Positions 334 to 62,851 of a stretch of 64,000 nucleotides of DNA are shown piece after piece. Under the pieces are notes generated by a model that had not been told where the DNA came from, ran no database searches, and saw nothing but the letters and a program-made list of their open reading frames with translations. The position numbers and the translations under genes are program-made. The stretch is from Cyanidioschyzon merolae (lineage: Eukaryota), in NCBI GenBank assembly GCA_000091205.1, contig AP006489.2; one strand, given 5' to 3'. Each line of letters opens with the position of its first letter. Position 1 is the first letter of the stretch.

Positions 334-2691
334 TCACGCATGCTCCCGTGCAGCGTCTCCAGGCGGTGGCAGCAGCGGCGCTTTGGCGGCACTCGTGGAA
401 AGCAGCGCGGCAACCACGGTCACGTTGTCTTGAGTCTCTCGCTGTAATGCCTCCGTAACCAGGCGGCGTGCCAACAGACCAGGGACCTGCACAGTGCCTC
501 GGATGATTTTCGCTACTTCACCGACATCCATGACATCCCAGAGACCGTCGGTGGCAAGGATCAGGATATATTCTCGATCGGGCTGCAAATGCTGGATGTA
601 GAGCTCAGGTTCCGCAGTCAAATAGCGTTTGAGCGCAATGTCCCCGATCGCACGCGTAACCAGCGTAAGACCCTCAACTCGAAGCGTACCAGCGCTATCT
701 GCAAGGACCCGTGCGCCTTGTTCTTGAAGACGTGCACGTTCCTGTGAAGACGCTGTACAAGTTTGATCTAAAGTGACGAGGATAGGCACCAAGGCCGTAT
801 CGGGTTGCACTTCAAAGAGCACCGCCCTGGAGTCCCCGATATTTGCCACATATAACGTGCCGCTGTGCACCATCGCCACAAGTGCCGTGCTGCCAACAAG
901 TCCTCGCTTCCCGAGGGCCTGTGATGCGTCGTGCTGGGCGCACCACAGCGACCAGCACATATCCACGAAACAGAGAAGCTCGCGCAGCACTTGTTCGGGG
1001 CGCATTTGCGGGTTACGACCCAGCAGCCTCTGGAGAGCATCTGGAATCAGAGCCGCCGTAAAGTCAGCTGCCTCCACACCACCATGGCCATCGAAAACAC
1101 CCAGTATATGGGAACTGCCCCAACAGGCGAGTGCCGGTCCAGACTGGACAAGCTCTATTGACAATTGCAATGGAGATGCTACCAGGTGACGATCTTCCAT
1201 ACGATCTGGTCCACGACGACCCGACACGGCATACGCCTCCGCTTGCACCCGATCTGAGCGATCTACAGAGGCAGGTGAGCTGCTTCGGTCGAGACGTTGG
1301 CGGAAACCAGCAGGCGCGGCGCTTCCCGTATCGCTAAGCGGGAACGGGCGATGCGCAACGCTCTGAACCAGTTCATGCGCTATGGTGGTGATCTCGTGAG
1401 CGTCCTTTCCAAAGTACGAAGCGGCGAGCGCACTCGGATCGGTTTCAGAAACAAGGTCAGCACCGGTAGCCGCAGAGGCCTGACGAGTGCGCTCCGCTGG
1501 ACCTCTTGGGGTCTGCGATGCGTCCACCTCGTCGTCGCCGATGTGCGTTGCCCACGCAGCGCCAGCCAAGGCGCCCTCTGGGTTCTCCGCCAAGGTAGAA
1601 CGCAGTATCCTGACCGCTTTAAACGAGGAACGCTTCAGCTGGTCAACCAATGCAGCTAGTTCCTTCACCACAGCTGACATGGCAGGCCGTCTCGCAGGGT
1701 CCGCATCCCAACACCTTTCAATGAGTTCGCACAGGCGTTGACCCTCGCGACCTCCAAGTGCATCCACATCCAGTCTGGGTCGCAGGTGCTCGGTAACGAT
1801 AGCCGTTCGTAGCTGCAGCTCGTTGAAGCGTGTCTCCAGAACCGTGTGCAGCTCTGGCTCGGAAAGTTGTCGATCCACGTAAGGCACAGAGGCGGTGACT
1901 ATCTCATTCAGCGTGATACCGAACGCGTAGACATCGGATGCATACGTAGATCCCCAGCCTGAACGCTCCGCGCTCAGAAGCTCCGGCGCCATGTACACGG
2001 TCGTACCAACCATATGAGCAAGACGTCCGGCACTGGGTCCAACGGGCAAAGGCGTGCCTTCGGAATGCAGACGATGCTTTCCTTCGTTAGCTTGTCGAAT
2101 AGCATGCGCGCTTGACTCCCGTATGGATTCCGTGTTTGGTAGCGAGTGCGAGTTGCTCATGATGGCGAGTTCAAAGTCCGCGAGCAGGACGCGATCATCT
2201 TCCAAGAGCAAGTTGGCCGTTTTCACATCGCGGTGGATAACACCAAGCTCGTGCAGGTTCTGCAAGCCGATGGCGAGCTGCAACGCCCACTCGAGTCGCT
2301 GGAGAATGCTATGGGTACCGGGCGTTGTCCGTTTATGGAGGACATCGAAAACGCAGCCCCCAGAGCACCAGGGCGTCACCGTGCAGTAAAACGGGGGCGC
2401 TTCGCATACCGCTAACAGCGGCAGCAGACCCGCCGGCATGCTTACCTTCTCATCGCCACGCTGGACGCAAGTTCTCTGACGTGCACGCACTGTAACATAG
2501 TGCTGCAGGTGAACCTGAGAGTGAAAGCGTTCCAACGCTGCGCTGGATGTGATGCGTGGCTGCCTCACCGCGACCGCCAGACCGTCCAACGTACCGCGGT
2601 ACACAGCGGCACCGCTACCTATAGCCGCTGGGTCAGCGAGTGGTCCCAGCTCAGCGCGAGACACCTGACGAAGTTCGCTTACAATGGACAT
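334..2691 (-). CDS. Protein-kinase-like domain (probably a pseudokinase) fused to a C-terminal PP2C serine/threonine phosphatase; 785 aa, single ORF
   Basis: The N-terminal half has kinase subdomains: a Gly loop IGSGAAVYRG, HRDVKTANLLL, YMAPE. The VAIK lysine is replaced (AVAVRQ) and DFG reads DFE. The C-terminal half has the PP2C motifs LGVFDGHGG, ATDGLWDV and DNVTVV. Confidence 0.8.
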   Translation of the reverse strand: MSIVSELRQVSRAELGPLADPAAIGSGAAVYRGTLDGLAVAVRQPRITSSAALERFHSQVHLQHYVTVRARQRTCVQRGDEKVSMPAGLLPLLAVCEAPPFYCTVTPWCSGGCVFDVLHKRTTPGTHSILQRLEWALQLAIGLQNLHELGVIHRDVKTANLLLEDDRVLLADFELAIMSNSHSLPNTESIRESSAHAIRQANEGKHRLHSEGTPLPVGPSAGRLAHMVGTTVYMAPELLSAERSGWGSTYASDVYAFGITLNEIVTASVPYVDRQLSEPELHTVLETRFNELQLRTAIVTEHLRPRLDVDALGGREGQRLCELIERCWDADPARRPAMSAVVKELAALVDQLKRSSFKAVRILRSTLAENPEGALAGAAWATHIGDDEVDASQTPRGPAERTRQASAATGADLVSETDPSALAASYFGKDAHEITTIAHELVQSVAHRPFPLSDTGSAAPAGFRQRLDRSSSPASVDRSDRVQAEAYAVSGRRGPDRMEDRHLVASPLQLSIELVQSGPALACWGSSHILGVFDGHGGVEAADFTAALIPDALQRLLGRNPQMRPEQVLRELLCFVDMCWSLWCAQHDASQALGKRGLVGSTALVAMVHSGTLYVANIGDSRAVLFEVQPDTALVPILVTLDQTCTASSQERARLQEQGARVLADSAGTLRVEGLTLVTRAIGDIALKRYLTAEPELYIQHLQPDREYILILATDGLWDVMDVGEVAKIIRGTVQVPGLLARRLVTEALQRETQDNVTVVAALLSTSAAKAPLLPPPGDAAREHA

Positions 2692-10483: not shown

Positions 10484-12763
10484 TTACAATGACGTTCGCG
10501 AGTGCGGTAGAAGCAGCGCGTCCCGTAAGCACGCGGCACGCCACGCCGCCACCTGCGGAAACAGTTTGCTCACATGGGCGACAAAGTCCCGTGCCGTGCT
10601 CTCGCTCTCGAATACAAGGTCCAGCACCTGCGTAACATCCGAGCGCTGAATGAGCACACACCAGCCCTCATTGGTAGCAGACGTTGTCGGCTCGGGCTCG
10701 GTTAACTCCAGAATGTATTCGAGTGGAAGACCAAGTAGGGGCTGGAAGCCGCCACCTTCCAGCACCTCCCCTACGATGAGCATTTTGCTCTCGTTCTCGT
10801 CGGCCGCGCACAGGACACGCCTGCCCTCCAGTGAACAGTTAAAAACATCCGTCTGGGCTAGCGCCAAGGTCATCGTCTCCGCCGACTGTGTTGACCAGCG
10901 GCTCGGATCCGAACGCGCCAGATCGCACTTGTAAAGGGGCAGCAGGACGGCGTCCACGTCCGAGTAGGTATCGCTGTCGAGCGTTGCCTCGAGATACCCC
11001 AGAAAACAGGTCACCCGTTTGTATGCAGCGCTTGTCTCCGACGAATCAGCCGGTCGGGATGGGGTTCCAGTCTGTCTACGCGGCGCTTGAGCAGCTACAG
11101 CATGCGCTAGCATCCAGAGACTTGCGTCCGCGATCACATGCTCTCGACGCTGCACGCTGTCGAGCGCGTTCTCGTTCAGGGTGTTCGCTTCAGAGGGCGT
11201 CACCGACCCGAATCTCGATCGATAACGATCCCTGATGTGTTGGAGAAGATCATTGCACAGGCGCTGGCGGTCCTCCGCGTGAGCAAGCAGGCGTCCCAGA
11301 TCATTCGCGTAGGCTGGGTTCTGCTCCAGGCTGAGCTGGATATCCCCGATGCGTTCTCGGTAGAGCTGGACAATGGACGCATCGATTTGCGTGTGCTGTT
11401 CGGGGTCGTCAACTGCAAGGACAAGCCTCAATAAAACCATTTCAAGAGTGGTTGCTATACCACCCGCACCGTTGGTTTTCTCATCGAACACCGATCCCCA
11501 GAACGATCTCCCCGGGTCTAGCTGGATCCAGAGTTCGCCTTGGGGCACCGCTTCCAAGCGGTTGATGAGCGCCTCACGAGCCGCTATGCAAACGGGAACG
11601 CTCGCCGCATATGCCGTCAAGCATCGTAAACGAACGTGGTCAGCAATTCGATCAGCGTTCGAAGCACTTGCTTTGACGAAACGAGATAACAGCGCTGTAT
11701 AACGCTCGCTACGTACGAGAGTGGCGCAGCATTCAGAGCATACCAAGGCTGAGTGCCCACGTTCCAGAAAGAAAATGAAAAGTTGGACTGCGTCCGATAG
11801 CGTTAGATCCGAGCGATCACCATTCGCTGCTGCGACGAGCACCGGAGTCAGAAAATCGCTGCGCAACAGGTTCAAGAGCGTCAGCTGCACGAAAGGACCA
11901 GCCTGGTTCGCCAGTTCACCCAAGAACTCGTAGACGTCCTGGAGCTCGGCGGCTGCTCTCGCTTGATCCCCGTTGACGGAGACTGCCGCGATTGCAGCTT
12001 GTCCCAGATTGGCGATATAACGCCTAGAAAAACTATTTTTTTGCTCCATCTCTCGCGATAGAAAGCGATCGAGTGTCGGTGCATCTGCGCTTAAGCGGAC
12101 GAGTCCCAAGATCATACCATATGCTGCCGCACGCACCAGACGATCGTCGTTGTCCAGAAACTGTGTAGCAGCATTCAGGAGCGGGAAAGTGTTATCCTCT
12201 TCGCGAAAGACCAAGGGCAAAGAGGCAATGTCCAGGCGCAAGCAGACTGTGCGCAGGAGAGAGAGATAGCTCGGAAGGAGGTCCGAATCCACGTCAGCCT
12301 CTTTTCCTGTGGCAGAATGAGTAGCTTCCGTCTCTTGGAAAAGCGGTGCTGCCAGAACGACCTGACGTAGTGCGTCGTGCGCCAGCAGGTACGCCAACAG
12401 AAGCGGGTCGTGGATATTCCATAAAAGCATCGCTGCAGTCTGTAAAGCTTTGACACGGAGCGCTTGCTGCTTCGCATCGCCGGCTGGCTGAACAGCAAGC
12501 TCCAGAATGGCCGCCCAGCACTCGTTTTCCAGGAAAGCGGTGCGGCTTAGTTCTCGTTCTCGCGGCTCTGTCGACAGCACCAGTTCCACAAGCTCCCCGA
12601 GGGCGTCGAATCGAGCAACCACATCCATTTGACCCGCGTCCGAGACCAGCTGTGCGACTCGCTCTGCACGCTGAGCGACATTTTCCCGAGGTTGTAACCA
12701 GCTAGACCAGGAGCCACGCGGAGCTGCCTGCGCTCCCCTGGACTTGGTCGGTGTCATGTGCAC
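10484..12763 (-). CDS. CLEC16A: CLEC16A-like protein (FPL domain), 759 aa, single exon
   Basis: The N-terminal region aligns colinearly with human CLEC16A: ALQTAAMLLWNIHDPLLLAYLLAHDALRQVV...LLPSYLSLLRTVCLRLDIASLPLVF...FPLLNAATQFLDNDDRLVRAAAYGMILGLVRL against LQTLNILFENI...LYYLLSNNYVNSII...AYYISFLKTLSLKLNNHTVHFF...[32 protein letters not shown]. Confidence 0.8.
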   Translation of the reverse strand: MHMTPTKSRGAQAAPRGSWSSWLQPRENVAQRAERVAQLVSDAGQMDVVARFDALGELVELVLSTEPRERELSRTAFLENECWAAILELAVQPAGDAKQQALRVKALQTAAMLLWNIHDPLLLAYLLAHDALRQVVLAAPLFQETEATHSATGKEADVDSDLLPSYLSLLRTVCLRLDIASLPLVFREEDNTFPLLNAATQFLDNDDRLVRAAAYGMILGLVRLSADAPTLDRFLSREMEQKNSFSRRYIANLGQAAIAAVSVNGDQARAAAELQDVYEFLGELANQAGPFVQLTLLNLLRSDFLTPVLVAAANGDRSDLTLSDAVQLFIFFLERGHSALVCSECCATLVRSERYTALLSRFVKASASNADRIADHVRLRCLTAYAASVPVCIAAREALINRLEAVPQGELWIQLDPGRSFWGSVFDEKTNGAGGIATTLEMVLLRLVLAVDDPEQHTQIDASIVQLYRERIGDIQLSLEQNPAYANDLGRLLAHAEDRQRLCNDLLQHIRDRYRSRFGSVTPSEANTLNENALDSVQRREHVIADASLWMLAHAVAAQAPRRQTGTPSRPADSSETSAAYKRVTCFLGYLEATLDSDTYSDVDAVLLPLYKCDLARSDPSRWSTQSAETMTLALAQTDVFNCSLEGRRVLCAADENESKMLIVGEVLEGGGFQPLLGLPLEYILELTEPEPTTSATNEGWCVLIQRSDVTQVLDLVFESESTARDFVAHVSKLFPQVAAWRAACLRDALLLPHSRTSL

Positions 12764-18812: not shown

Positions 18813-20888
18813 CTAGCGCTCTAAATCAAAGAGAAGCCTCATGATTCGCTGCACTTGCTGGCGGGCTGTGCTCGCGGTAGCTCCCTGTTCCGCGTAGTGT
18901 CGCTCGAGTCGATGCATCGCATCAGGATCAAGGTGGATACCTTCGGCGCTCACAATGGCGAGGCACTCGGCCAAGGCCGGCCATAGAACAGCAGGAGCCT
19001 TGCAATGGGCACGAATCAGGGCACGAACGCCAATGTGGCTCGGGAGCACTGTCGTAGCTGCAATTTCGCCGTTTGCGAACACATGAAACAAGTCTAGCGC
19101 GGTACGAGCACGGTGCGTTCGGTCACTAGCAACGAGCAACGCATCTAGTATCGAGCGAAGCATCTGTGGTGTCAGTTTCTCTTGAATGGTCTCGTTCCTA
19201 CGCACATAGGTCTCGTAGATGGTAAAGGCGTAGTCCGCAAGACGCACCGCACGAGCGTTGTACGCGAGACCCCGGATTGCCGGAACGACGAGGCGCTGGG
19301 CATCTGGTAGGGTCCCTCGCAGGATCTGCAGCACTTGTGCGCCCTTGCCGTTGTAGGCAAACGCTTCAACCTCGGCGATGGGCAGAGCTTCCCGCGCTGG
19401 CGCTGGGCCGCGTTCTGAATCGGGGAGGGCGCTCCACCTGGACTGAATGCGAGGCAAGAACCGATCCGCAAGGCTAAAGAATTCCCTCCAAGAATGCCTT
19501 GATGCGTCAGGAAGTGATGACGGTCTCCAACGCGGATCTAGTCCACGAAAAAGAACCCGAAACGTGAAAGCGTCGGGTACGAGCCTTGCGAACCCTGCGT
19601 CATGCCTCGTCTCTTTGCCTAAGGCATACGGGCTAGGAACCCAGCGATCGTAAAACCCAAGCATTTCCTCAGTGCAGCCTCGGGTGCCGAGAAACTCCAG
19701 CATGATGTTCAATGTGCCTCTGTCTGGCTCTATTTGCCATTCCCGGCGGATACGCTCGAGAAAGCGTTCCAAGAAGCCTAACGGTTCGTCCTCGGTGATC
19801 GGATGCGGAAGCTGCCGACGCCGCCACGTCGGATAGAAAGGACCCCCTCGAGGTCCATTGCAGAGCCCGTCGAGCACCGTATTCAGGAGAACGATATCGG
19901 GACTACATTGATATCGCCGGCAAACGTCGAAGCACTCGTCCAGGTCCTGCGGCCAGCGCAGATACCCCAGCGCTTGAACACGACACTTCCACAGAGCGCT
20001 GTAGACCCCAAGGGAGAGTGCGGGAGCTGCTGCGTAGACCTGCTCCAGCGTGCGATACAGCCGGGTAACGGTCTCGGGTCGAAGCCAGCGGATCCATGGC
20101 GTCCAGCTGGCAAGCGCTTTCGCAAACGCGAGCTTGTCTGTTGGCTGTAATGCGCTCACGTCCCCAAAAGCGCTCGTACACCATTCGACGATATCCGAGA
20201 GCAGAGCCCCCGTCTGGCGATCATGTGGGACACTGGGCCAGGAAGCAAGCTTTGTCCGCACTGCAGCAGCGATCAGCGGGGCACGTCGATTCGCGTCGGG
20301 AGACCGGTTCTTCTCCCCAAACGGAACGCTTTCTGCCTGGCTGTGTCGAAGTGCTGCATGAAGGCTCTGGATGGTGTCGGAGTCTCGGATGGCTTGCAGC
20401 GCTCGGTGCAGGTCTGTAGCGCAGGAGTCCGGAGTATCCGCCGCTATCAGTGCCGCCTTCCGCAGTGCAGCACTGGCAAGCTCATTCGCCGACAGCGGCT
20501 GTTGTGAATGGCTGGAAACCAGACGACGACGACGACCTGGAGCATGTGTATGGAATCCGTCCAAAGTCGCTGCGTGTAGTTCAACGGCGCCGCTCTTCGA
20601 CAGCAGCTCCGGGTGCACCTGCAGTCCGCAGTTCGACAGCCAACAGCTAGCACGCTGTGGGCTCAAGGCACTACATGTCCCCGGTATTCGCTGGTAGTAC
20701 GGTTTCCAGTTAATGAAAGTAAAGTCCAGCGTGTGCAGTCGCAAACGAGCAGAAGAACGGTGCAGTTGCAACGCTTTCCCCAGCATATCGACGTCGACGT
20801 TGGAAGCAGTCGTTTCCGTGCCTCTAAAACTGTGAAACGCTGGGTTACCACTTGATGGCTCAAGACAGCGCTCTCTGCTTACTGCCAC
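18813..20888 (-). CDS. Helical-repeat (PPR-like) protein, 691 aa
   Basis: Several roughly 35-aa units resemble pentatricopeptide repeats, for example SPDIVLLNTVLDGLCNGPRGG, PDRGTLNIMLEFLGTRGCTEEMLGFYDRW and DAFTFRVLFRGL. No other domain is recognised. Confidence 0.4.
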   Translation of the reverse strand: MAVSRERCLEPSSGNPAFHSFRGTETTASNVDVDMLGKALQLHRSSARLRLHTLDFTFINWKPYYQRIPGTCSALSPQRASCWLSNCGLQVHPELLSKSGAVELHAATLDGFHTHAPGRRRRLVSSHSQQPLSANELASAALRKAALIAADTPDSCATDLHRALQAIRDSDTIQSLHAALRHSQAESVPFGEKNRSPDANRRAPLIAAAVRTKLASWPSVPHDRQTGALLSDIVEWCTSAFGDVSALQPTDKLAFAKALASWTPWIRWLRPETVTRLYRTLEQVYAAAPALSLGVYSALWKCRVQALGYLRWPQDLDECFDVCRRYQCSPDIVLLNTVLDGLCNGPRGGPFYPTWRRRQLPHPITEDEPLGFLERFLERIRREWQIEPDRGTLNIMLEFLGTRGCTEEMLGFYDRWVPSPYALGKETRHDAGFARLVPDAFTFRVLFRGLDPRWRPSSLPDASRHSWREFFSLADRFLPRIQSRWSALPDSERGPAPAREALPIAEVEAFAYNGKGAQVLQILRGTLPDAQRLVVPAIRGLAYNARAVRLADYAFTIYETYVRRNETIQEKLTPQMLRSILDALLVASDRTHRARTALDLFHVFANGEIAATTVLPSHIGVRALIRAHCKAPAVLWPALAECLAIVSAEGIHLDPDAMHRLERHYAEQGATASTARQQVQRIMRLLFDLER

Positions 20889-23424: not shown

Positions 23425-24855
23425 ATGCCGGCGCCGCGGTGGGCTCGCCGGCCGCCCATCGCCACCCTGGAGCTTGCTCTTCGACCTCAGCTCAACGTGG
23501 CTTTCAGTGCCTGTTTCATGTTCGTGACTATCGGTATTGGGACGACTACCTTTCGCGAGCAGAAGCTCGATGTGCATCGTGCACTCAAAGCATCTCAACC
23601 CGCGTGGAACGTTGCCAACGTGCGTTTCCGGGTAGCGTGCGCTCCGTTTCGCAAGACGTCGTCGACGACGCGGTCTCGGCGAGCCGGCACCGCCGCCCTA
23701 CACGCCCGACTGAACCTGACTGAGCGCATTCCGGTGGCGGTCCTCGGTGCTACCGGTTCGGTTGGACAGCGTTTCGTGCAGCTGCTTGAGGGTCATCCCT
23801 GGTTCGAGGTAGTTGCTCTGGGCGCTTCGTCGCGTTCCGCGGGCCACAAGTACGGCGAGCAGGTGTCTTGGAAGCAGGCGACGCCCATACCCGCAGACAT
23901 GGCCGATATCGAGATATCGGAATGTGATCCGAATGAGGCTGCCTATCGGGACGTGAGGATCGTGTTCAGCGGACTAGACAACCAGATTGCTGGCGAGATC
24001 GAGACGCGTTTCGCGCAAGCCGGAAAAGCCGTCTTCTCGAACGCGAAGAACCACCGCATGGACCCGGACGTGCCTATCCTGATTCCTCCCGTCAACGCCT
24101 CACATATTGAAGCAGTGCGAACACAAGCGGTGTATCGTCAGAGTGGAGGTTTCATCGTCACCAACGCGAACTGCTCTACGACAGCGATGACTATCGGTCT
24201 GGCGCCTATATGGAAGAGCCCCGAGCTTGGCATTGAGACGATTGTGGTTAGCACCATGCAGGCCATTAGCGGTGCTGGGTACCCTGGGCTCAGCGGTATG
24301 GATATTCTTGACAACGTTGTTCCGTATATTGGTGCCGAGGAGGGCAAGATGGAAACCGAATCACTGAAAATTTATGGAGAATACCAGCCGACTCGAGGCT
24401 TCGTGCCTGCAGAGATCAATGTTTCGGCGATGTGCAATCGGGTACACGTGCTGGACGGGCACACTGAAGCGGTATCCATCAAAGTCCGGAATCGCGGCAA
24501 CCGGAGCAAGGAAGAACTGGCCCAAATGGTGATTCGAGCCATCCAAGAGTACCCGTCGACATCTCGCGATGTTTTTGGACTACCAAGCGGACCTGAACGC
24601 GACGTTGTCTACAATCAGGCACCAGATCGTCCGCAGCCGCGGCTTGATCGGAACCTGGGTAGAGGCTTTACGGTTACCGTAGGACGGGTGCGCCCCTGCA
24701 ATGTGCTCGACGTGAAATTGGCCTTGTGCGGACACAACACCATTGTCGGAGCCGCTGGTGGCAGTATCCTGAACGCCGAACTCGCTGTGGTGAAGAAACT
24801 CATCGCAAGCGTCGGTGTAGGTGCAACGGAGCATGGCGCAGCCGTTCGGCGTTGA
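23425..24855 (+). CDS. Aspartate-semialdehyde dehydrogenase (fungal/archaeal-type), with about 100-aa N-terminal extension
   Basis: VAVLGATGSVGQRFVQLLEGHPWFEVVALGASSRSAG (NAD(P)-binding), ...FIVTNANCSTTAMTIGLAPI (active-site Cys), ...SGAGYPG... The ORF is colinear with ASADH/Hom2 throughout. Confidence 0.85.
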   Translation: MPAPRWARRPPIATLELALRPQLNVAFSACFMFVTIGIGTTTFREQKLDVHRALKASQPAWNVANVRFRVACAPFRKTSSTTRSRRAGTAALHARLNLTERIPVAVLGATGSVGQRFVQLLEGHPWFEVVALGASSRSAGHKYGEQVSWKQATPIPADMADIEISECDPNEAAYRDVRIVFSGLDNQIAGEIETRFAQAGKAVFSNAKNHRMDPDVPILIPPVNASHIEAVRTQAVYRQSGGFIVTNANCSTTAMTIGLAPIWKSPELGIETIVVSTMQAISGAGYPGLSGMDILDNVVPYIGAEEGKMETESLKIYGEYQPTRGFVPAEINVSAMCNRVHVLDGHTEAVSIKVRNRGNRSKEELAQMVIRAIQEYPSTSRDVFGLPSGPERDVVYNQAPDRPQPRLDRNLGRGFTVTVGRVRPCNVLDVKLALCGHNTIVGAAGGSILNAELAVVKKLIASVGVGATEHGAAVRR

Positions 24856-25797: not shown

Positions 25798-26916
25798 TTA
25801 CGATTTAACGATTTGAACGACATCTTCGTCCTGAAGTACGTGATCTGCACCAACTTTCTGAGGAGAGAACTTCACAGACGAGCCCCAGACCCACGCGTAC
25901 CGCATCTGATCCAGCAACGACTTGTGGATTCGACGGCACAGTGCGCGTACGGTGCAGTGTTCGGGTGCATTGCGGAGCACAATAGGTGCGTCATAGTCCG
26001 GTATTTCGCCCTTGGGCTTGGTGTAGATGCGGATCAGGTCCAGCTTTTTCCACATCTCCTCGAGGAGTCCATCGAGATTCCAGCCCAGATGTCCACTTAT
26101 CGGCACATAGTCCTCAAGTCGGTCGTACAACTCAAGTTCCTCCATGCTCGTTGCGTCAATCTTATTTAGCACATAGAGCACCGGCACATAGACTCGATTC
26201 CCTTCCAGAACGTCGATGAGATCGTCGGGTGTCGCATCCTCCTTGAGCACGATTTCAGCATTGGGACAACGATACTCTTGGCATATGGTTCGGCAAAGCT
26301 CCAAATCGAGATGCGATGCCGGTCCCTGGAACAGGGTGGTCAGCGTGACTCCGCCGCGGTCTTTTCGACGCACCGCTATCCGCGGTCGCTGCTTCCCGAG
26401 TCGAATGCCGAACCCTTCAAGCTCGCGCTCGATGATGCGCTTGTGAACGACTGGCTTGGTCGCGTCCAGAACAATCATGATTAAATCACAGGAGCGTGCG
26501 ACCGCGATGACTTGCCGGCCCCTGCCGCGACCCTCCTTGGCCCCTTCGATGATGCCAGGCAGGTCGATGAGCTGGATTTTTGCACCCCGGTAAAAGATGT
26601 TCGATGGAATAGCAGTTAGCGTCGTGAACTCGTACGCAGCCACCTCGCTTTCCGTCTCGGTGAGCTTACTGAAGAGCGTGGACTTACCCACGGACGGGAA
26701 ACCGATCATGGCAACGCGTGCGTCACCGGTTCGAGCGACGTCGAAGCCTTCACCACCGCCACCGCCGCCGCTGGCTTTGGTGCTCTCGAGCAACAGTTCC
26801 CGCTTGAGCTTCGCAAGTCGGGACTTGAGACGGCATATATGACCCATGGTTGCTTTGTTCACCTGGGTTCGAGCCAGTTCATCCTCGATATCTTTGATTT
26901 TCTGCAGTGTCGCCAT
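25798..26916 (-). CDS. DRG: Developmentally regulated GTP-binding protein (DRG, Obg family with TGS domain)
   Basis: [23 protein letters not shown]...[10 protein letters not shown]...[15 protein letters not shown]...[38 protein letters not shown]...ends [10 protein letters not shown]. The ORF track extends 38 codons upstream of the true Met at 26916. Confidence 0.9.
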
Positions 26917-28701
26917 TGTTCCCCTACAGACTACACCGCCAGGGCCTGCGGCAACAAACGCGCTGTAGAGGCAGCGCGTTTCTCCACGGCGATATGCGAT
27001 ATTTGCCGCCGCGTCCACGCACTGCACCATTGCGTACCGGGAGGCGATGCCTCGAACTGACTGTGCTCGACGAGTGTGCGGTTGATATCGGTTGCTGGAG
27101 GCACAAATTTCGAATTATCGGGCGACAGGTCCACGATCCTACTCCAGGCAAGTGCGACTCGGCTTGTCCGCCTGGTCATTGTGGCCCAGAGCGCGAGCGA
27201 GCGCCACCTTCCGGCGCCTGTGAGGCTGCCTCGGCCCCGGTACCACGACGTATGCAAGTTCCCGAAACGAGGTCCTCTATGCTACTGGTTGTCCACGTGA
27301 TCAGTCGGTGCCTGTGACTGAGCCTTCTCGATGACATTCGCTCTCGTCGATCATATTTTCGTGCTTCGCAGCGGCGCGTGCAGGCGAACGCTGCGATCCG
27401 GTGCGGCAACCTTGCAAGCGCGAATGCCCTGCTCTTGATAATTCGATGCTTTGCACGCGCAAACGGGTTTGAGTCACAACTATCTGCATAGGATCATGAA
27501 AGACGAACCGGTGCAATGAGGCATTCAGGAACGGGCGCACGGGCCTCGGAGTACCGGCTCTGAGCGGGCGATGTCGACGAGCGCGTCGTCAATACGCGAT
27601 TGCGACCAACTTGGGGCCGCAGCAAGCATCAGCGGCCTCTCTGGCAACGCATCGACAACGAGACGAGAGACTGCTCACGTTAGACGTGCAACCTGATTCC
27701 ATCGAGGCCATGGGAATCGCCAGACTCGATACAGGGTTGCGGGGCACGGCCGTCGATTCGCCTGCAACGACATACGACGCTGTTGCTGTTGCCCGGGACC
27801 ATGCCATCTTCAGAGCGAGCGATCGACTTTGAGCGGGGCCCTCACATCCGACCAGCGAACAACGTGTCAAACTCTTGGACTGGAACGCTCGTTCTTCGTA
27901 GCAGGTAGAGCGAAGCGCGATGATAACCCATCTCTAACCATAAAGTACCCTGCTCGCGTGCACGTCGTTGTCGCTTTCCTCGATGGCTTCCCGAACGCAA
28001 CACGCAAGCGTCTTGCAGCATGCATCTCCGTAGAACGTCGCTATGTCGCGAACCGACACGCACAAGGGTATAGGAAAGCTGTTTAGCCGCTGTGCTGCAT
28101 CTGTTCCAGCGGTTTGAGCGCTACGGCGGACGCTCCAAGCACGAACTCGGCGCACGATAGAACGTACAAGACGACCAGTGCATCTGGATGGGAGTATCAG
28201 CAATGCAGCTTGGAGGCAGGGTGCAACAACATCATGGACGCTTTCCCGAAAGCCTATTCCCATCCGAATCGCACTCTGGAGTCCGTGATCGAAGGCAACG
28301 TTTTGCGATCGGACGCGCAGATCCTCAATCGCCGCGCATGCATGCTCGTGTTGCCATGCCGCGCAAGTGCATTGCGCTGGGGCGGCGAGGCGCGCTTCTG
28401 TAACTGTGGCACATTTGTCTAATACAGGCGACGCGCCCCCGCAGCAGCCGCAGCGACTGCATATCGGGTCGAGCGGGCGTGCAGGCATACGCCACGAACG
28501 CTGGCGCATGCTCGCGTGACTGCGGGCATTTTTCAAGGTCGACTGTCGGAACGTACCGTAGTGGAGCTGCACACGGGCGTACCTCTCACTTGTTTGAGTT
28601 AACTGTTTGAAAACATAGCGCGTAATTGATCAGAGAGGGGTTCGGAGAGAAAGAGGGGTGAAACGCTGTCCTGGGCGCTGAATTATTCGCAGCACGGACG
28701 A

Positions 28702-32095: not shown

Positions 32096-33493
32096 ATGCC
32101 GAAGAATGGTCTCTCTTTAGGGAAAGTAGAAGCGGTTGCTGCTAGTCTGGACGTTCCCGAGGGCTACCACTGGCCGCACGAGGCCTTCCGTTCCCTCGAC
32201 GTTTTAACTCGGTGCCCGATCTGTGGGGAACACTTCCGCGCGCCTGTGCTGCTTGAGTGTGGCCACAGTTTCTGCAGCGAATGCATTCGTCGTGCGCTTG
32301 TTTATCGAAGCGAGTGCCCGCAGTGTCGAGCGCCCGCCAGTGCAGGGCAACTTCGTCGAAACCGTTTGGTTCAGGACGTTACAACCGCGTGGCAACAAGC
32401 ACGCGAATGCGTGCTAACCCGCTTTTCACCACAAGAGCACGCTGGGAATACGGAATGCCGGAGCTCGAAATTGGAAGCTTCGACTGAGAGCGGCCTCACG
32501 GTTCGAGAAAGAACCGAAGCAGCTTGCCCGGTGCGAGCGGCAGCGCTGACCGCACAAGTTGCGACTAGAGGTCGCGCTCGGAGCGCTCCTGTCCCGCCAG
32601 ACGAGCATACCGCAGCGGTATCAGCTGTTTGGACAGACAGACAACACCAGAATTGGGATGAAGCGGGTGTCTGTTGTGGAAATTGCGAGGAGTCGGCTTC
32701 CTCTGCAGTGTCAATGTCGAAGCGCACCGAACCCAGTCATCGATTCGAAAGAAGCGCTGAACGGGCGGGAGCCCAGCCTCCGAACGGAGGACTGAGCGGC
32801 ATTGCGGCTGTACCGCAGCCGCTTCCAGTGTTTCAGAAAACAGACGACATCTACGCGGAGGATTGGTCGGAGGCTGCTCCAACTCGGACGCCCGCCGCGT
32901 TGCCTGGTGAAGCTGCACGGGCAATGGAGCCGCGCCCACGAAACGATGCAGAGTCGACGGCGACAAGCGGTCACGCGTCGTTCACTCGACGGGCCTCGTG
33001 CGAGAGGATCCAGCAAAGAGACCATACCAAGTATGTCGAGTGCCCCATTTGCAATCGTGCATACCCGCCGGCTTTTATCCAGGTCCACGTGAATGAATGC
33101 CTGGATCAACTGGATGCCGTAGAGGCGAGCGGCTTTCCGGAAGCCGGATCTCGGGCTTTGGCCAAAGCCACCAACACGCTCGAAGACGAATATCCGATGC
33201 GGAAGATTCCCGAGGTTTGGTACGACGGCCTGACTGAACGTCGTCTCCGGGAAATGATTCGGGCGCTCGGCATGAAAGCTCCACCAGCGTGGCTCCGGAA
33301 TCGTCGTGGCCTCATTTACCTGCACCGCGAGTACGTCATTCGACATAATGCGGAGTGCGATGTGGAGCCGGTGACCGCGCGCAAACAGCGACGTAACATC
33401 TGCAGAGAGGTCGAGGAACTCGCCTGGTTCCAGATCGAGTCTGCGAGGCGACCCACACGACCAGAGGCAGCGCGTTCTTCGAATGCAACCTGA
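32096..33493 (+). CDS. RAD18: RAD18-type E3 ubiquitin ligase (RING + UBZ4 zinc finger + SAP domain)
   Basis: RING: CPICGEHFRAPVLLECGHSFCSECIRRALVYRSECPQCRAP. UBZ4: VECPICNRAYPPAFIQVHVNECLD. SAP: LTERRLREMIRALGMKAPPAWLRNRRGLIYLHREYVIRHNAECD (compare human QEFVHMYNAQCD). The domain order matches RAD18. Confidence 0.85.
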   Translation: MPKNGLSLGKVEAVAASLDVPEGYHWPHEAFRSLDVLTRCPICGEHFRAPVLLECGHSFCSECIRRALVYRSECPQCRAPASAGQLRRNRLVQDVTTAWQQARECVLTRFSPQEHAGNTECRSSKLEASTESGLTVRERTEAACPVRAAALTAQVATRGRARSAPVPPDEHTAAVSAVWTDRQHQNWDEAGVCCGNCEESASSAVSMSKRTEPSHRFERSAERAGAQPPNGGLSGIAAVPQPLPVFQKTDDIYAEDWSEAAPTRTPAALPGEAARAMEPRPRNDAESTATSGHASFTRRASCERIQQRDHTKYVECPICNRAYPPAFIQVHVNECLDQLDAVEASGFPEAGSRALAKATNTLEDEYPMRKIPEVWYDGLTERRLREMIRALGMKAPPAWLRNRRGLIYLHREYVIRHNAECDVEPVTARKQRRNICREVEELAWFQIESARRPTRPEAARSSNAT

Positions 33494-37584: not shown

Positions 37585-39294
37585 TCAGATGACGGCCGAT
37601 GAACGCCGTGCCTTTCGGATGAGAGCGTGAAGTCGATTCTTCACCGCATTCTCTGAACGCCCCTTGAGTTTCGAAGCGATGAAGGCCCACGCTGGCCCGC
37701 GTCGCTCATACTCGCGCAGGATGATGAGATCCTCACGGGCACTAAAGGGCTCGTGCCGAATACTCGGATCCAAATAGTTCCGATATCGTTCACGGCAGCG
37801 GGCGGCAGTACGTCCCGGCAAGCGTGACGCGATCTGCGTCCACGGTATTCGCAGGCCCGACACAGAGACCTGGACATTGCCGTAGGCGTTTCGTGTAGGG
37901 TCGTATTCGCTATCGGGCTGATCATGATCATCATCTTCATGGGGCCAGAGTCCACGAGGTTCCCTATCCCGCGTCATGTGCGCACCAGTTCGCAGCGTGG
38001 ACAGATGCGCTTCCACAAGCTGGCGCAGACGATTGTCCTCCTCGGGGGTCCAGTCACGTCGCTTGCGGTTATCTTTCTCGATGCCGTTATTCAAGGGAAT
38101 GGAATCAGCGAGATATTCTTGCAAGGACGTGTCTATCGTCTGCTCCGTGCCCGGACTCGGCTTTGTTTTGAGCTTTTTTGCCGTCCGGGGATGATCTTCT
38201 CCGAAAGAATCGGGTTCGCCGCCAGCACCCGCGACGTCTCTTTTTAGCGACAAGCTCCGAGTCGGCATCGACGACGATGCCGAGACGTCCGCGGACGATG
38301 TTCTGCGCCCATGGTCGCTGCCTCCACGAGAAGCGCGCAACGCTTCCCATCCGATCGAATGGAGGACCTGCTGAACAGCGCTCGCATGAGAGGCCTCCAG
38401 GAGATGCGCGCAGAAGATGCAAACATTAGGCTGTTGTGTATCTGTCGATAGATCATCGAAGCAGGCGGGGCCAGCGCGCGCTATGGAACTCGTTTCCGAC
38501 AACGGAGTGCTGCGGGCGCGACACCAAGGCGTCGTCGTCGTCGTCGTCGAAGATGCTGACGGGTCGCTGCCCACACAGAACGGGCTCATGGCATCCAGGC
38601 GAGTTTGCGTGTCGAGGTGCACGGGCTGAGGTGTCACCGGCGAGAGCGCTGCTGAATGCGCCGCGGCGTTCGCAGCACCGACGAGGTCGCCTCCATCGAG
38701 CGAAGTATTTAACGGTGCACGCTTCCAGTTTGGATACCCTACACCTTTGAGGTCGTCTACTAAAATCGATGAGCATACGGAGTGCGTCCCGTGGTCGCTC
38801 TCCGACATCGTATCCTGACTAAGGCTCTCGATCGTGCCGGAAAGCGCCTCGGCAGTAAACCTGTGCAACCAGGTTTTCCACCCTTCGGTAAGACTATCGC
38901 TTGCGTACGAGAAACTAGAGTGCTCGTGTGGCTCAGGTCCAAGAAGCGGCAGCCAGTCAACAGGGATACAAGATAACTCGCTGGTACTCTGCTCCCCGGT
39001 TTCCGCACAAGTTGCCATAGAGCATAAAACTTCTAGTAGCCGATGAAGATATTTGGGTATGCCACTTGGCACGCAACGTACCAGAGAAAAAAAGCACGAA
39101 AATATCGTTGTGCTTTCGACTTTGTACACAAAACACCAACACAATTTATCACCTCGAGCAACCGTCGTATGGCTTCGTGAACCCGTCTGCATCGTCAGCT
39201 GTCCCCCGTCGTGCGGTACGTACCGCAAGCGTCTTGTCCCCGAATTCGCGGGCGCATCGAGCGCGCATCGAGTGCGGCGCGAGATCGAATGCAT
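37585..39294 (-). CDS. Myb-domain (R2R3-like) DNA-binding protein
   Basis: C-terminal tandem Myb repeats: WTPEEDNRLRQLVEAH... / WTQIASRLPGRTAARCRERYRNYLDPSIRHEPFSAREDLIILREYERRGPAWAFIASKLKGRSENAVKNRLHALIRKARR. The N-terminal two thirds is low-complexity. Confidence 0.7.
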   Translation of the reverse strand: MHSISRRTRCALDAPANSGTRRLRYVPHDGGQLTMQTGSRSHTTVARGDKLCWCFVYKVESTTIFSCFFSLVRCVPSGIPKYLHRLLEVLCSMATCAETGEQSTSELSCIPVDWLPLLGPEPHEHSSFSYASDSLTEGWKTWLHRFTAEALSGTIESLSQDTMSESDHGTHSVCSSILVDDLKGVGYPNWKRAPLNTSLDGGDLVGAANAAAHSAALSPVTPQPVHLDTQTRLDAMSPFCVGSDPSASSTTTTTTPWCRARSTPLSETSSIARAGPACFDDLSTDTQQPNVCIFCAHLLEASHASAVQQVLHSIGWEALRASRGGSDHGRRTSSADVSASSSMPTRSLSLKRDVAGAGGEPDSFGEDHPRTAKKLKTKPSPGTEQTIDTSLQEYLADSIPLNNGIEKDNRKRRDWTPEEDNRLRQLVEAHLSTLRTGAHMTRDREPRGLWPHEDDDHDQPDSEYDPTRNAYGNVQVSVSGLRIPWTQIASRLPGRTAARCRERYRNYLDPSIRHEPFSAREDLIILREYERRGPAWAFIASKLKGRSENAVKNRLHALIRKARRSSAVI

Positions 39295-40006: not shown

Positions 40007-41560
40007 CTAAATCACGCCTTCGCGGAGCGGGGTGGTCGGCACCAGCGGTCGACCGGAGCCTGAAAGTCTACCTTGGCGGACGAGCTCCTCCATGCGTTGT
40101 CGCGCTTGCGTCCGGCATGAAATGTGTGCTCTGCGCCTGCTACCGTCGCTCAACAATGCTGCTTCGGTGCTTATAGGGTCGCTCTCCGTTGAACTGAAGT
40201 AGCCATCGACGGCCGATTCAAGTGAATCGCTGCGGCGGAGTCCAGTTGCTGATACGAGGTTCAGATCCGACATGTCTGCGCTCAGCGCACTGGTTTCCGA
40301 GTCTTCCCGCTGAGTTGGTAGAGATTCCGCGGACGGATCTCGCTTTCGGAATGCCGTCTGGATACGCTGCCAATTTGGTGGCTCGTCGGATGGCTGAACA
40401 CTGCCAGTCCATTCATGCACAAATTGGGTCCAGCCTGCAGAGCTCCAGCCTGACGCTTCCTCTACAGACTCAACGTGCAGGTCATATTCCAGAGATACTT
40501 CAGTTTCTTTGAGAACCTCGAGTGTTGGGGCTTGCGTCGCTGGATTCTGGGTGAGATGTTCAGGGCTCGCCTGTCGCCAGCATGGACTAGTCTGTTCATC
40601 GGCGAATGCCGCAGATGCTGCGACGCCCGGGCGTGATCCGCTAAGCCAGCCGCACAGCGTCTCCGTATCTGCACCCGTCTGGTTGCCACTGAACTTGGTC
40701 GACCAGGGCGAGGCCCAACCAGCCATTGCCGATGACGCACCGCAAGCGACCCGTGCTGGCCGCGGTTCGAATTTCGGCTCGATGCACGTATCCGCCTGAT
40801 TGAGCTCTCTCGCTAGCGACCAATCCCCGTCAACATGATGCTCTTGTGTCACGCGTTCAAGATCAAACGATAATGAAGGCAAGGGACATGTGGATCTCTT
40901 CATCGGGCAAGCTCGCTGCGCTGGAGCAGTCACTACTGTTCGCGTCCCTGAATCGTTTTCGGAGGTTGCTTGGCTCGGCGCTTCCGACACCACCGTATGA
41001 GCCTGGTCCGAGGGCGACACCGCGACTCGCGGGCAAACGCTTTGGCTTGGTGATCCCGCGACCGCTCGCCGACTCGTACCAGTGGCTCGCGCCTGCACCT
41101 GCTCGTTGCTCGAGCGGGTGTCCAGTGTGCTGCTGAGTGCACCACGTCGCAGTCGCTCCCGAGCTGCATCTTTTGCCGCCCTGCTTTTTGATTTTAGCCG
41201 CTCCTGATTTCTCGAATAGTAAAGCAGGTTGCGTGTGTACTGGTAAATTCTTTGCTCGTGAAGTTCGAGCCAGCGACGCTGTGCCTCGGACTCGTCTCCA
41301 CTCGGCAAACCGGTAATTCGCGCAATTTCCAATCGAAGAAAGCGCTTTCTCGGCTTGGTCAGGAGGACGCTTGCTGTGACGGCGTCTCGACTCTTGCTCT
41401 TTTCAGAGGAACGGTGCCAGTCGTCGGCGATCCAGTTGCGCACCTCCTGTTGGACAAGCTGTTTCACCACCCGGTGGTACTCTCGCCGCTGTAAGTTACC
41501 GCCTTTTGCGGTTATTTCCCTATACAAAGCATCGTGCTTGTGATCACTCTCATAACCCAT
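40007..41560 (-). CDS. Hypothetical protein, 517 aa, largely low-complexity; no recognised domain
   Basis: This is a long ORF on the minus strand with a basic N-terminal region (RWLELHEQRIYQYTRNLLYYSRNQERLKSKSRAAKDAARERLRR). It could be the spurious product of a GC-rich region. Confidence 0.3.
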   Translation of the reverse strand: MGYESDHKHDALYREITAKGGNLQRREYHRVVKQLVQQEVRNWIADDWHRSSEKSKSRDAVTASVLLTKPRKRFLRLEIARITGLPSGDESEAQRRWLELHEQRIYQYTRNLLYYSRNQERLKSKSRAAKDAARERLRRGALSSTLDTRSSNEQVQARATGTSRRAVAGSPSQSVCPRVAVSPSDQAHTVVSEAPSQATSENDSGTRTVVTAPAQRACPMKRSTCPLPSLSFDLERVTQEHHVDGDWSLARELNQADTCIEPKFEPRPARVACGASSAMAGWASPWSTKFSGNQTGADTETLCGWLSGSRPGVAASAAFADEQTSPCWRQASPEHLTQNPATQAPTLEVLKETEVSLEYDLHVESVEEASGWSSAGWTQFVHEWTGSVQPSDEPPNWQRIQTAFRKRDPSAESLPTQREDSETSALSADMSDLNLVSATGLRRSDSLESAVDGYFSSTESDPISTEAALLSDGSRRRAHISCRTQARQRMEELVRQGRLSGSGRPLVPTTPLREGVI

Positions 41561-61189: not shown

Positions 61190-62851
61190 TTGTTGGGCTG
61201 GCAACCAGAGCTTCGCGAAAGCCACGCACTAGGGTTGCTGCGTTTTGGCGAAGCGTTACGCAGCCTGGTGCAGCGACCAGTGCAACGTATGCCTCTGAAC
61301 CCAGGTGCGTCTGTTGCGGTGATTGGCGCTGGTGCTGCCGGACTAGTGGCAGTACGGATCTTTCGTGACGCGGGTTTCCGCGTGACTGCATTCGAGTGCA
61401 GCGAAACCGTCGGCGGCACTTGGAACTACCAAGATGTTGCGAACGAGCCTGACCTAGCACGGGCCGCAAGCCGCAGACTCGAGTCGACAACGACGACAGA
61501 GACGCCATCTTCGGAGGTTTTCAGGCAGGTGCCAGAACAGACGACTAGGCTCGCTGCACTGCCGCCGGTGCAGTCGTCTATCTACGCGGGTCTGCGAACG
61601 AACTTGCCCAGGCAAGTTATGCAGTTTTCCGATGCTCCGTTTCCAGAGCATTTGCCTTCATTCATAGGCCATCGCGATGTTCAGCGCTATATGGTAGACT
61701 ATGCTCGACGACACAACCTGGAGCGCCACATACGCTTCGGTGTCTGGGTGCAGCGCGTGCAGCCGGTCTCGAACGACGTTTGGAGTCGCTACCTGGTGAC
61801 GTTCTCGTCCTCGAAAAGCCCGGAGGCATGCACACAAGCATTCGATGCTGTTTGCGTCTGCAACGGGCACTACAGCGTGCCACAAATACCTGCTGAGCCG
61901 TACTCAGAGCCTGCGGATGGCACGGAGTACATTCCTGGTCTCACTGACGGAACATTTTGTCCTGGTGTTGTGCGGCACAGTCATTACTATCGGGATGCAG
62001 AAAAGTATCGCGATTTGCGGGTAATCTGCTTAGGAGCTGGTCCCTCCGGAGTGGATATCAGTCTAGAGATCGCTGAATATGCCAGAAAACCTGTCTATCT
62101 CTCGTGTCGAGCGGTGAAGCAAATGCCCTCAGATAGCGCCACGGAGCAGTACGGAGTTCTCCAGGTACCGCGACTTGTCGCTGTCATTGGTCCACGCACC
62201 GTGCAACTCGCGGACGGCAGCATTCTGCACGACATTGACGTGATCATGCTTTGCACCGGCTATCGATACTCGTTTCCGTTTCTGACCGAAGCGTGCGGTA
62301 TATCGGTGACGCTGCAGGGACGTGTCGTCACGCCGCTCTACCGCCATCTGATTCCAGTGTCCAGGTGGACGCTACCGCTCATAGGTATACCATATGCGGT
62401 GGTACCGTTTCCATTGTTTGAATTCCAGGCTCGTTATGTAGCTGCGGTCTTCCAAGGTCGCGTCCAGTTGCCGGAAATGAACGCAATGCAGGCTGCGATT
62501 CTAGAAGAGAAACAGGTGCAGCAAAGCTTTGGGTTACAGGCAAAACATTTTCATCGACTCGGTGATCGCCAGTGGGCCTACAACCGCGAGCTTGCGGATG
62601 CTGTTGGAGTCAAGGGACCGACCTTGGCCGTTCAGTCTGTGTACAACGATGCAGGCACACATCGGAAACTCGATCCGAAACATTATCGAGAGCGCGAATA
62701 TCGTATATTTGGTGACGGCCCAGAGGACTGGGAAGTACAGAGCCCGGCGATGGTACAGCTGGATGCGAAATCCAGTAAGAAGGGAAAGCATCCAACCAGG
62801 TCGAAAGAAGCAGCTATTGAGACAAGCGCTGAGTTTTCCGCTGGACTCTAA
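61190..62851 (+). CDS. Flavin-containing monooxygenase (FMO family)
   Basis: FAD site VAVIGAGAAGLVAVRIF...FECSETVGGTWNY; FMO-identifying motif FCPGVVRHSHYYRD (FxGxxxHxxxY/F); NADPH site VICLGAGPSGVDISLEI; ...MLCTGY. The true start is probably the internal Met at 61289. Confidence 0.8.
   Translation: MLGWQPELRESHALGLLRFGEALRSLVQRPVQRMPLNPGASVAVIGAGAAGLVAVRIFRDAGFRVTAFECSETVGGTWNYQDVANEPDLARAASRRLESTTTTETPSSEVFRQVPEQTTRLAALPPVQSSIYAGLRTNLPRQVMQFSDAPFPEHLPSFIGHRDVQRYMVDYARRHNLERHIRFGVWVQRVQPVSNDVWSRYLVTFSSSKSPEACTQAFDAVCVCNGHYSVPQIPAEPYSEPADGTEYIPGLTDGTFCPGVVRHSHYYRDAEKYRDLRVICLGAGPSGVDISLEIAEYARKPVYLSCRAVKQMPSDSATEQYGVLQVPRLVAVIGPRTVQLADGSILHDIDVIMLCTGYRYSFPFLTEACGISVTLQGRVVTPLYRHLIPVSRWTLPLIGIPYAVVPFPLFEFQARYVAAVFQGRVQLPEMNAMQAAILEEKQVQQSFGLQAKHFHRLGDRQWAYNRELADAVGVKGPTLAVQSVYNDAGTHRKLDPKHYREREYRIFGDGPEDWEVQSPAMVQLDAKSSKKGKHPTRSKEAAIETSAEFSAGL

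Follow-up and report, generated by a model that had tools for sequence, protein, structure and literature searches.

The VTC3 orthologue of the red alga Cyanidioschyzon merolae, a predicted two-domain protein with arginine at the β3 lysine position of its kinase fold

VTC3 and comparable kinase–phosphatase systems

VTC3 (VITAMIN C DEFECTIVE 3; At2g40860, the "Protein kinase and PP2C-like domain-containing protein" of Arabidopsis) is a kinase::PP2C fusion that was published for Arabidopsis in 2013 and is listed for green plants and red algae (PMC11066809). Its loss leaves ascorbate at ~35-50% of the wild-type level in Arabidopsis and moss (PMC10069634; PMC12675267), and a positive effect of VTC3 on the ascorbate pool under light or heat is known from Arabidopsis and Physcomitrium mutants only. 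According to a 2025 finding, VTC3 does not act through VTC2/GGP (PMC12675267), and rhodophytes are without VTC2 (PMC4396506). Here we analyzed the gene at 334..2691 on the minus strand of a 64,000-nucleotide stretch of nuclear DNA from Cyanidioschyzon merolae (contig AP006489.2, assembly GCA_000091205.1; hereafter the window), and from sequence comparison we conclude that its product is the C. merolae orthologue of VTC3. Proteins of this family are conserved in photosynthetic eukaryotes and serve in signalling; they have two domains, a TKL-type kinase fold being tethered to a PP2C. Neither the gene nor its architecture nor its family is new; it is an ordinary annotated gene, and the architecture is no discovery. 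The part that may be unreported lies in the kinase active site, where a change of the β3 lysine to arginine and of DFG to D-x-[DE] runs throughout the sampled red algae and is not found in the green lineage. We found no literature joining VTC3 with the term 'pseudokinase', in a search that did not cover the primary paper of Conklin et al. 2013 (J Exp Bot 64:2793).

Compared with plant VTC3, the C. merolae protein has the same N-terminal TKL-like kinase and C-terminal PP2C, collinear in one chain, with a long activation segment, a degenerate Gly-rich loop, canonical HRD..N residues, the DFG Asp and the metal-binding residues of the PP2C. Red algae differ from plants in having Arg instead of Lys at β3 and D-x-[DE] instead of DFG, in a PP2C with DGHGG (DGHRG in plants) and a 2-residue insertion before RMED, and in lacking the N-terminal extension and its 'C[IV]RGCC' motif. 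In the Cyanidiophyceae, the inserts and the linker are also longer (785 amino acids in C. merolae against ~657).

Other described systems resemble the protein in part. KSR1 and KSR2 are likewise TKL/RAF-like kinases in which the β3 Lys is replaced by Arg and the catalytic Asp, the Asn and the DFG Asp are retained, and KSR2, with its β3 Arg, is still able to bind ATP-Mg, by way of the conserved Asn and Asp, and is weakly active (PMC4718504). In contrast with the C. merolae protein, KSR keeps the DFG Gly, is without a phosphatase domain and scaffolds RAF/MEK with its CA1-CA4 regions. Nothing that could correspond to CA1-CA4 lies N-terminal to the C. merolae kinase domain. The likeness to KSR is functional only, with no evidence of orthology. 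In the clade A PP2C-SnRK2 pairs, represented by HAB1-SnRK2.6 (PDB 3UJG), the PP2C belongs to the same subfamily by similarity, and HAB1 acts on a Ser/Thr kinase fold via its activation loop. Those partners, however, are separate proteins under the PYR/PYL-abscisic acid (ABA) receptors, whereas the C. merolae domains are covalently tethered and we infer their contact in cis. In TAK1-TAB1, too, a TKL kinase fold comes together with a PP2C fold, one partner being catalytically degenerate. This pair is the mirror image of the C. merolae protein, in that TAK1 is an active kinase, TAB1 is a pseudophosphatase and the two are separate polypeptides.

Identity of the gene

The interval 334..2691 (minus strand, as are all features of the gene given below) holds one continuous reading frame of 785 amino acids without an internal stop, according to the open reading frame (ORF) list and the translation. 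The coding sequence is complete, with its stop codon at 334-336 and an in-frame stop 4 codons 5' of M1. Along all 785 residues, the product is 100% identical to the protein deposited for C. merolae 10D (BAM79627.1/XP_005535913.1), whose annotation reads "protein phosphatase 2C, with protein kinase domain". Pfam matches the kinase families in two stretches with an insert between them (Pkinase, E 2.4e-24; PK_Tyr_Ser-Thr, E 5.1e-23) and PP2C at residues 497-757 (E 9.5e-39; 134 bits against a cutoff of 20.3). On the ORF, the kinase fold occupies residues ~18-350 (1642..2640) and the PP2C/PPM domain residues ~481-765 (397..1251). Considering that an identical protein is deposited and that more than 50 full-length orthologues exist, the ORF is a real gene and not a chance ORF. 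The GC content of the window is 52-59%, its ORFs are widely spaced and no introns are visible, all of which is consistent with C. merolae nuclear DNA.

The 130-residue linker that parts the two domains is poorly conserved and mostly disordered, as might be expected if a kinase gene and an adjacent PP2C gene had been read as one or if an intron or a frameshift had been overlooked. The frame is nevertheless unbroken, the deposited 10D protein is identical, and both domains stand on one polypeptide in over 50 orthologues, which come from genomes and from transcriptomes such as those of MMETSP and EukProt. Moreover, the linker itself holds a confidently predicted, clade-conserved helix. Given the continuous frame, the identical deposited protein and orthologues of 620-775 amino acids that are collinear with 94-98% of the C. 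merolae protein, we regard such an artefact as ruled out, with a negligible probability left to it. A bacterial origin is ruled out as well, since every relative with a name is a eukaryote, either alga or plant, and the window itself is nuclear DNA of C. merolae. Copies in Joint Genome Institute (JGI) metagenomes carry the automatic name 'PrpC'.

A word-indexed search returned 53 strong relatives, all of them with kinase and PP2C. The named ones are red algae (Cyanidiococcus, Cyanidium, Gracilaria, Gracilariopsis, Agarophyton, Porphyridium, Pyropia, Compsopogon and Purpureofilum), and several bear in UniProt the same name as the Arabidopsis protein. We then built a profile from 16 red-algal sequences and searched it against 1.84 billion representative proteins. 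Next after the red-algal set came full-length kinase+PP2C proteins of ~640-820 amino acids, each matched in a single stretch, including those of Drosera rotundifolia (a land plant), Chlorokybus (a streptophyte alga) and Pedinophyceae (chlorophyte). The Drosera protein (P0097) was matched in one stretch at profile positions 21-644 with 531 bits. Used as a query, it retrieved hundreds of land-plant proteins named "protein kinase and PP2C-like domain-containing protein" and two Hibiscus entries named "VITAMIN C DEFECTIVE 3". In BLASTP, the C. merolae protein and Drosera VTC3 are collinear, with 35% identity in the kinase (E 7e-48) and 35% in the PP2C (E 3e-35). Red and green VTC3 also have motifs in common that are absent from generic kinases: a long activation segment ending in P-[ST]-x-G...MVGT..YMAPE, VP[YF]xD...HTVLE, LRP, and a Gly-rich loop two residues shorter than GxGxxGxV. 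These family motifs were derived here from an alignment of red, green and Ancoracysta sequences and are not a published definition.

Could the red-algal protein instead be a separate fusion of a TKL kinase with a PP2C, of unrelated function and not orthologous to VTC3? Identity to plant VTC3 is only ~35% per domain, the PP2C motifs differ as described above, the conserved green N-terminal extension is missing, and VTC2 is absent from rhodophytes. The order and spacing of the domains are the same in red and green members, however, and the two groups share features as unusual as the P-[ST]-x-G...MVGT end, HTVLE, LRP and the shortened Gly-rich loop. In addition, the best non-red full-length matches among the 1.84 billion proteins are green VTC3, and the literature already places VTC3 in red algae. 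As such, an independent fusion is highly improbable, and we retain the orthology with VTC3.

The preliminary description of this DNA had likewise reported a single 785-residue kinase::PP2C ORF, which the ORF list and Pfam bear out and to which we add the strand. It had also allowed that two genes might be involved, which did not prove to be the case, and had proposed a survey of orthologues; the same fusion is present in more than 50 full-length orthologues. It had further called the protein reminiscent of plant KAPP, though distinct from it, and in KAPP a PP2C catalytic domain is also joined to a kinase-engaging module. KAPP consists of an FHA-type kinase-interaction domain, a membrane anchor and a PP2C, and has no kinase fold. 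In the 785-residue protein, Pfam shows only kinase and PP2C families at E<=0.01 and no FHA domain, which rules out a relationship to KAPP and makes the comparison inapt. Nor is the architecture unusual, as had been suggested, because it is that of the VTC3 family published in 2013 (PMC11066809) and the C. merolae protein is already annotated in this way.

Full-length collinear kinase+PP2C proteins were also observed in transcriptomes of protists outside Archaeplastida, namely in Ancoracysta twista (Provora, P0096), the diplonemid Lacrimia lanifica (P0142) and the MMETSP transcripts P0109 and P0390, where contamination by prey is possible. The MMETSP taxon id given for P0390 (87120) leads to a fungus; we judged it unreliable or truncated and set it aside. 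In the diplonemid copies, HRD is changed to VRD or LRD.

Red-algal VTC3 starts straight at the kinase domain (at residue ~18 in C. merolae), and the green orthologues have 20-60 additional N-terminal residues. Because the plant-type N-terminal targeting extension is absent, C. merolae VTC3 is probably cytosolic and not plastid-targeted. Within the first 30-60 residues of streptophyte VTC3 (P0097, P0319 and P0100), the motif 'MG...C[IV]RGCC.S' is conserved from Chlorokybus to angiosperms, and it is missing in red algae. The motif does not resemble the usual transit peptide; it may mark a site of acylation, an odd feature in a VTC3 reported as chloroplastic.

Active sites, predicted structure and neighbouring genes

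The kinase fold is TKL/RAF-MLK-like. Its best PDB sequence matches are B-Raf and MAP3K12, the matches being generic RAF/MLK kinase domains at ~20-30% identity, and Foldseek matched the N-terminal half of the model to the TKL kinases BRAF, RIPK2, CTR1 and TGFBR1 (target-normalised template-modelling score, TMt, up to 0.86). In the translation, AVAVRQ lies at 39-44, HRDVKTANLLL at 153-163, DFE at 172-174 and APE at 235-237. When aligned to B-Raf with HMMER, R43 (2563..2565) stands opposite the Lys of VAVK, Q59 (2515..2517) opposite the αC Glu of FKNEV, and DFE (2170..2178) opposite DFG. The catalytic loop HRDVKTAN (153-160; 2212..2235) is fully canonical. Two residues are missing from the Gly-rich loop, as is its third Gly, and some orthologues have a degenerate loop ('STPNARVF'). 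Only R43, I47, S49, L53, R55 and F56 are invariant in the N-lobe of red-algal sequences, and neither the rest of the N-lobe nor the Gly-rich loop holds a conserved substitute Lys in the red-algal alignment. A WNK-like alternative catalytic Lys is therefore ruled out. D155, K157, N160 and D172 are kept and invariant in red algae, so that the HRD Asp and the DFG Asp are not lost. Considering that a pseudokinase is defined bioinformatically by the loss of at least one of the VAIK Lys, the HRD Asp and the DFG Asp, the label holds for this sequence.

To compare these positions across the family, we counted residues in up to 54 red-algal sequences, non-gap counts varying by position, and in 120 land-plant VTC3 clusters. 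At the β3 Lys position, all 50 non-gap red-algal sequences have Arg, and the land-plant clusters have Lys in 113 and Arg in 7. The third position of DFG is Asp in 47 and Glu in 5 of 52 red-algal sequences and Gly in none, compared with Gly in 118/120 land-plant clusters. The αC Glu position has Glu in 47 red-algal sequences and Gln in 3, which are only those of Cyanidioschyzon/Cyanidiococcus, and Glu in 99 and Gln in 21 land-plant clusters. No variation was seen in HRD, the catalytic-loop Lys and Asn, or the P and E of APE, either in red algae (51-54 sequences) or in land plants; the DFG Asp is invariant in red algae and present in 118/120 land-plant clusters. With R43 and DFE, C. merolae thus departs from the β3 Lys and DFG typical of plant members, a pattern that is not a formal criterion of the family. 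A strict coupling between Lys->Arg and an acidic residue in place of the DFG Gly, as in an Arg-acid ion pair, is not supported as a rule, because Lys occurs with DFD, DLD or DFE in several non-red lineages.

All seven land-plant clusters with Arg are from Hibiscus (P0319, P0320, P0323, P0324, P0332, P0341 and P0347), with the sequence 'VAARKP' and DFG kept, a second, recent and independent Lys->Arg change in the VTC3 family. A shortened, degenerate Gly-rich loop is common to all VTC3 proteins, whether or not they keep the Lys; in land plants it reads G-S-E-S-V-V-Y, and Glu has taken the place of the second Gly in 118/120. With this loop and DGHRG, plant VTC3 too is therefore no textbook kinase.

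In a neighbour-joining tree of 43 full-length members, calculated with no bootstrap support, the red algae form one clade with Arg only, and the nearest outgroups (Ancoracysta, one MMETSP sequence and the green clade) all have Lys. As the red clade has only Arg and its nearest outgroups have Lys, the tree indicates that on the red-algal stem Lys gave way to Arg in a single ancient change. C. merolae and red algae outside Cyanidiophyceae are 48% identical in the N-lobe, 51% in the C-lobe, 37% in the PP2C and 10% in the linker. Judged by these values, the red-algal kinase domain is not decaying and is more conserved than the PP2C.

In the PP2C domain, RMED lies at 497-500, GVFDGHGG at 531-538 (DGHGG 534-538), GDSR at 619-622, DGLWDV at 715-720 (DGLWD 715-719) and DNVTVV at 755-760 (DN 755-756). 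E499, D500, D534, G535, D620, D715, D719, D755 and N756 are invariant, and the acidic metal-binding residues are so in all 54 red-algal and 120 land-plant sequences. HAB1 was the top PDB sequence match, together with OsPP2C50 and PPM1K, and the C-terminal half of the model matched PP2Cs in Foldseek (PPM1K, TMt 0.85-0.87). Because all metal-coordinating residues are kept, the domain is predicted to be an active phosphatase.

The segment from DFE to APE comprises 66 residues in C. merolae and 44-45 in most relatives; the corresponding segment of B-Raf, from DFG to APE, has 30. The insert within it (177-217; 2041..2163) is ~20 residues longer than in Florideophyceae or land plants, poorly conserved and predicted to be disordered, with a predicted local distance difference test (pLDDT) of 28-44. 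It is followed by the conserved end of the segment, GPSAGRLAHMVGTTVYMAPE (218-237; 1981..2040), in which G218, P219, S220, G222, R223, L224, M227, V228, G229, T230, Y233, P236 and E237 are invariant in the red-algal alignment. MVGT..YMAPE is common to red and green VTC3. T230 does not vary across the red, green and Ancoracysta sequences either, and the green members shown have Ser or Thr where red algae have S220. In Drosera VTC3, the unvarying Gly of MVGT is Gly203, and to this Gly the vtc3-1 mutation (G202E) may tentatively be mapped.

Several statements of the preliminary description are borne out by these comparisons. The motifs that it quoted (AVAVRQ, HRDVKTANLLL, DFE, APE, GVFDGHGG, DGLWDV and DNVTVV) are all in place in the translation, the HMMER alignment agrees that the VAIK Lys is replaced and DFG changed to DFE, the activation segment is long in comparison with most relatives, and the PP2C metal-binding signature is intact throughout the family. 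It had named a conserved Lys elsewhere in β3 as evidence for an active kinase, and we found none in the N-lobe. Its designation as a pseudokinase stands by the bioinformatic definition, the β3 Lys being absent, but 'catalytically dead' goes beyond the evidence, since the catalytic residues are invariant and the precedent, KSR2, is weakly active.

HTVLE (282-286; 1834..1848) is a family signature whose H282, T283, V284 and L285 do not vary between red, green and Ancoracysta sequences. It lies within PELHTVLETRFNE (279-291; 1819-1857), the motif most conserved in the family, which contains the longest invariant run of the red-algal alignment and where the pLDDT is only ~44-45. This stretch may be a partner-binding motif that folds only when bound. 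The AlphaFold2 model was calculated on the 16-sequence alignment and has a mean pLDDT of 69 and a predicted template-modelling score (pTM) of 0.48. Both domains are confidently folded in it, and the activation-segment insert, here 180-228, is predicted to be disordered. The interdomain linker (351-480; 1252..1641) is mostly disordered (pLDDT <50 at 357-416 and 448-479), with a helix at 419-446 (1354-1437; pLDDT 87-89 for ~420-445). This helix is kept among Cyanidiophyceae ('P.AL...YF') and missing in other red algae, and in the light of the model it could be a clade-specific docking or autoinhibitory element. Foldseek found no solved chain spanning both halves; its top structural match was chain B of the SnRK2.6-HAB1 complex.

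By Pfam, the neighbouring ORFs of the window encode an FPL-domain protein (10484-12763, minus strand), an aspartate-semialdehyde-dehydrogenase-like protein (23425-24855, plus), an Obg/DRG-type GTPase with a TGS domain (25798-27030, minus), a RING-finger protein (32096-33493, plus), a Myb protein (37585-39294, minus) and an FMO-like monooxygenase (61190-62851, plus). The ORFs at 18813-20888 and 40007-41560 have no Pfam match. A 931-residue ORF at 45923-48718 (minus) has the full bacterial-type UvrB set (ResIII/DEAD, UvrB_inter, Helicase_C, UvrB and UVR) and an N-terminal extension of ~260 residues; its product may be an excinuclease subunit that is targeted to an organelle and has an endosymbiotic origin. 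No functional link between the listed neighbours and the VTC3 gene was seen.

Proposed mechanism and its meaning for VTC3

On balance, we favor, by a modest degree, a reading in which the kinase fold is a nucleotide-binding pseudokinase, as in KSR, or a very weak atypical kinase, and recruits partners and/or gates the PP2C. The tethered PP2C would then be the main catalytic output, and the kinase fold would dock partners and/or gate this phosphatase. S220 and T230 are candidates for a phospho-switch, which the PP2C could reset by acting in cis, much as PP2Cs act on SnRK2 kinases in trans. The physiological role of C. merolae VTC3, judged from its plant and moss homologues, is probably to control the ascorbate pool in response to light or stress. 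In rhodophytes, which are without VTC2, such a role would have to run via something other than VTC2/GGP, and the retention of VTC3 in algae without VTC2 fits the 2025 finding that VTC3 acts independently of VTC2/GGP.

It can be argued instead that VTC3 is a bifunctional enzyme whose kinase is an active, atypical Ser/Thr kinase, with Arg43, perhaps together with the acidic residue at DFG+2, replacing the β3 Lys. Such a protein would both phosphorylate and dephosphorylate its targets or itself, as was first proposed for plant VTC3. In its favor, none of the 51-54 red-algal sequences counted departs from the HRD Asp, the catalytic-loop Lys and Asn, the DFG Asp or APE, and conservation is higher in the kinase domain than in the PP2C. 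The independent Arg of Hibiscus VTC3 suggests that Arg is tolerated in the family. Moreover, the green orthologues keep Lys and DFG, and the ancestor of the VTC3 family was therefore probably an active kinase. A change from Lys to Arg at β3 is, however, the classical kinase-dead substitution. In C. merolae, the αC Glu partner is also gone (Q59), and the Gly-rich loop is two residues short, without the third Gly, and degenerate in some orthologues. KSR2 with its β3 Arg does weakly phosphorylate MEK1 (PMC4718504), but kinase activity of VTC3 has never been reported (PMC10069634). Taken all together, we consider the active atypical kinase the less likely explanation, and the dual action on targets or on VTC3 itself doubtful to the same extent.

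Several points nonetheless weigh against the pseudokinase-gated phosphatase that we favor. The invariance of D155, K157, N160 and D172 across red algae is what would be expected of an active enzyme and not of a pure scaffold. Gating and dephosphorylation in cis are our inference only, and a pTM of 0.48 does not fix the packing of the domains. No enzymatic assay of VTC3 has been reported for either domain (PMC10069634). The role in ascorbate control is extrapolated from the green lineage, the reported chloroplastic location of Arabidopsis VTC3 conflicts with a cytosolic protein in C. merolae unless the lineages differ in localisation, and the tree behind the Lys->Arg change is a simple neighbour-joining tree without bootstrap support.

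The red-algal orthologues amount to a natural mutagenesis experiment, in which the fusion, the catalytic loop and the phosphatase site are kept and the β3 Lys is replaced in every species. Homologous recombination is routine in C. merolae. For a protein of open mechanism this is a modest but useful lead, which would not surprise a specialist. If the kinase fold is non-catalytic or Arg-based, the core function of VTC3 needs no conventional phosphotransfer. It is conceivable, though we advance it tentatively, that for probably more than 1 billion years red algae have kept a VTC3 kinase fold that lacks the Lys and the DFG Gly and is more constrained than the PP2C, its core function being pseudokinase-gated, VTC2/GGP-independent phosphatase signalling. 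If true, this would redirect work on the control of plant ascorbate by VTC3.

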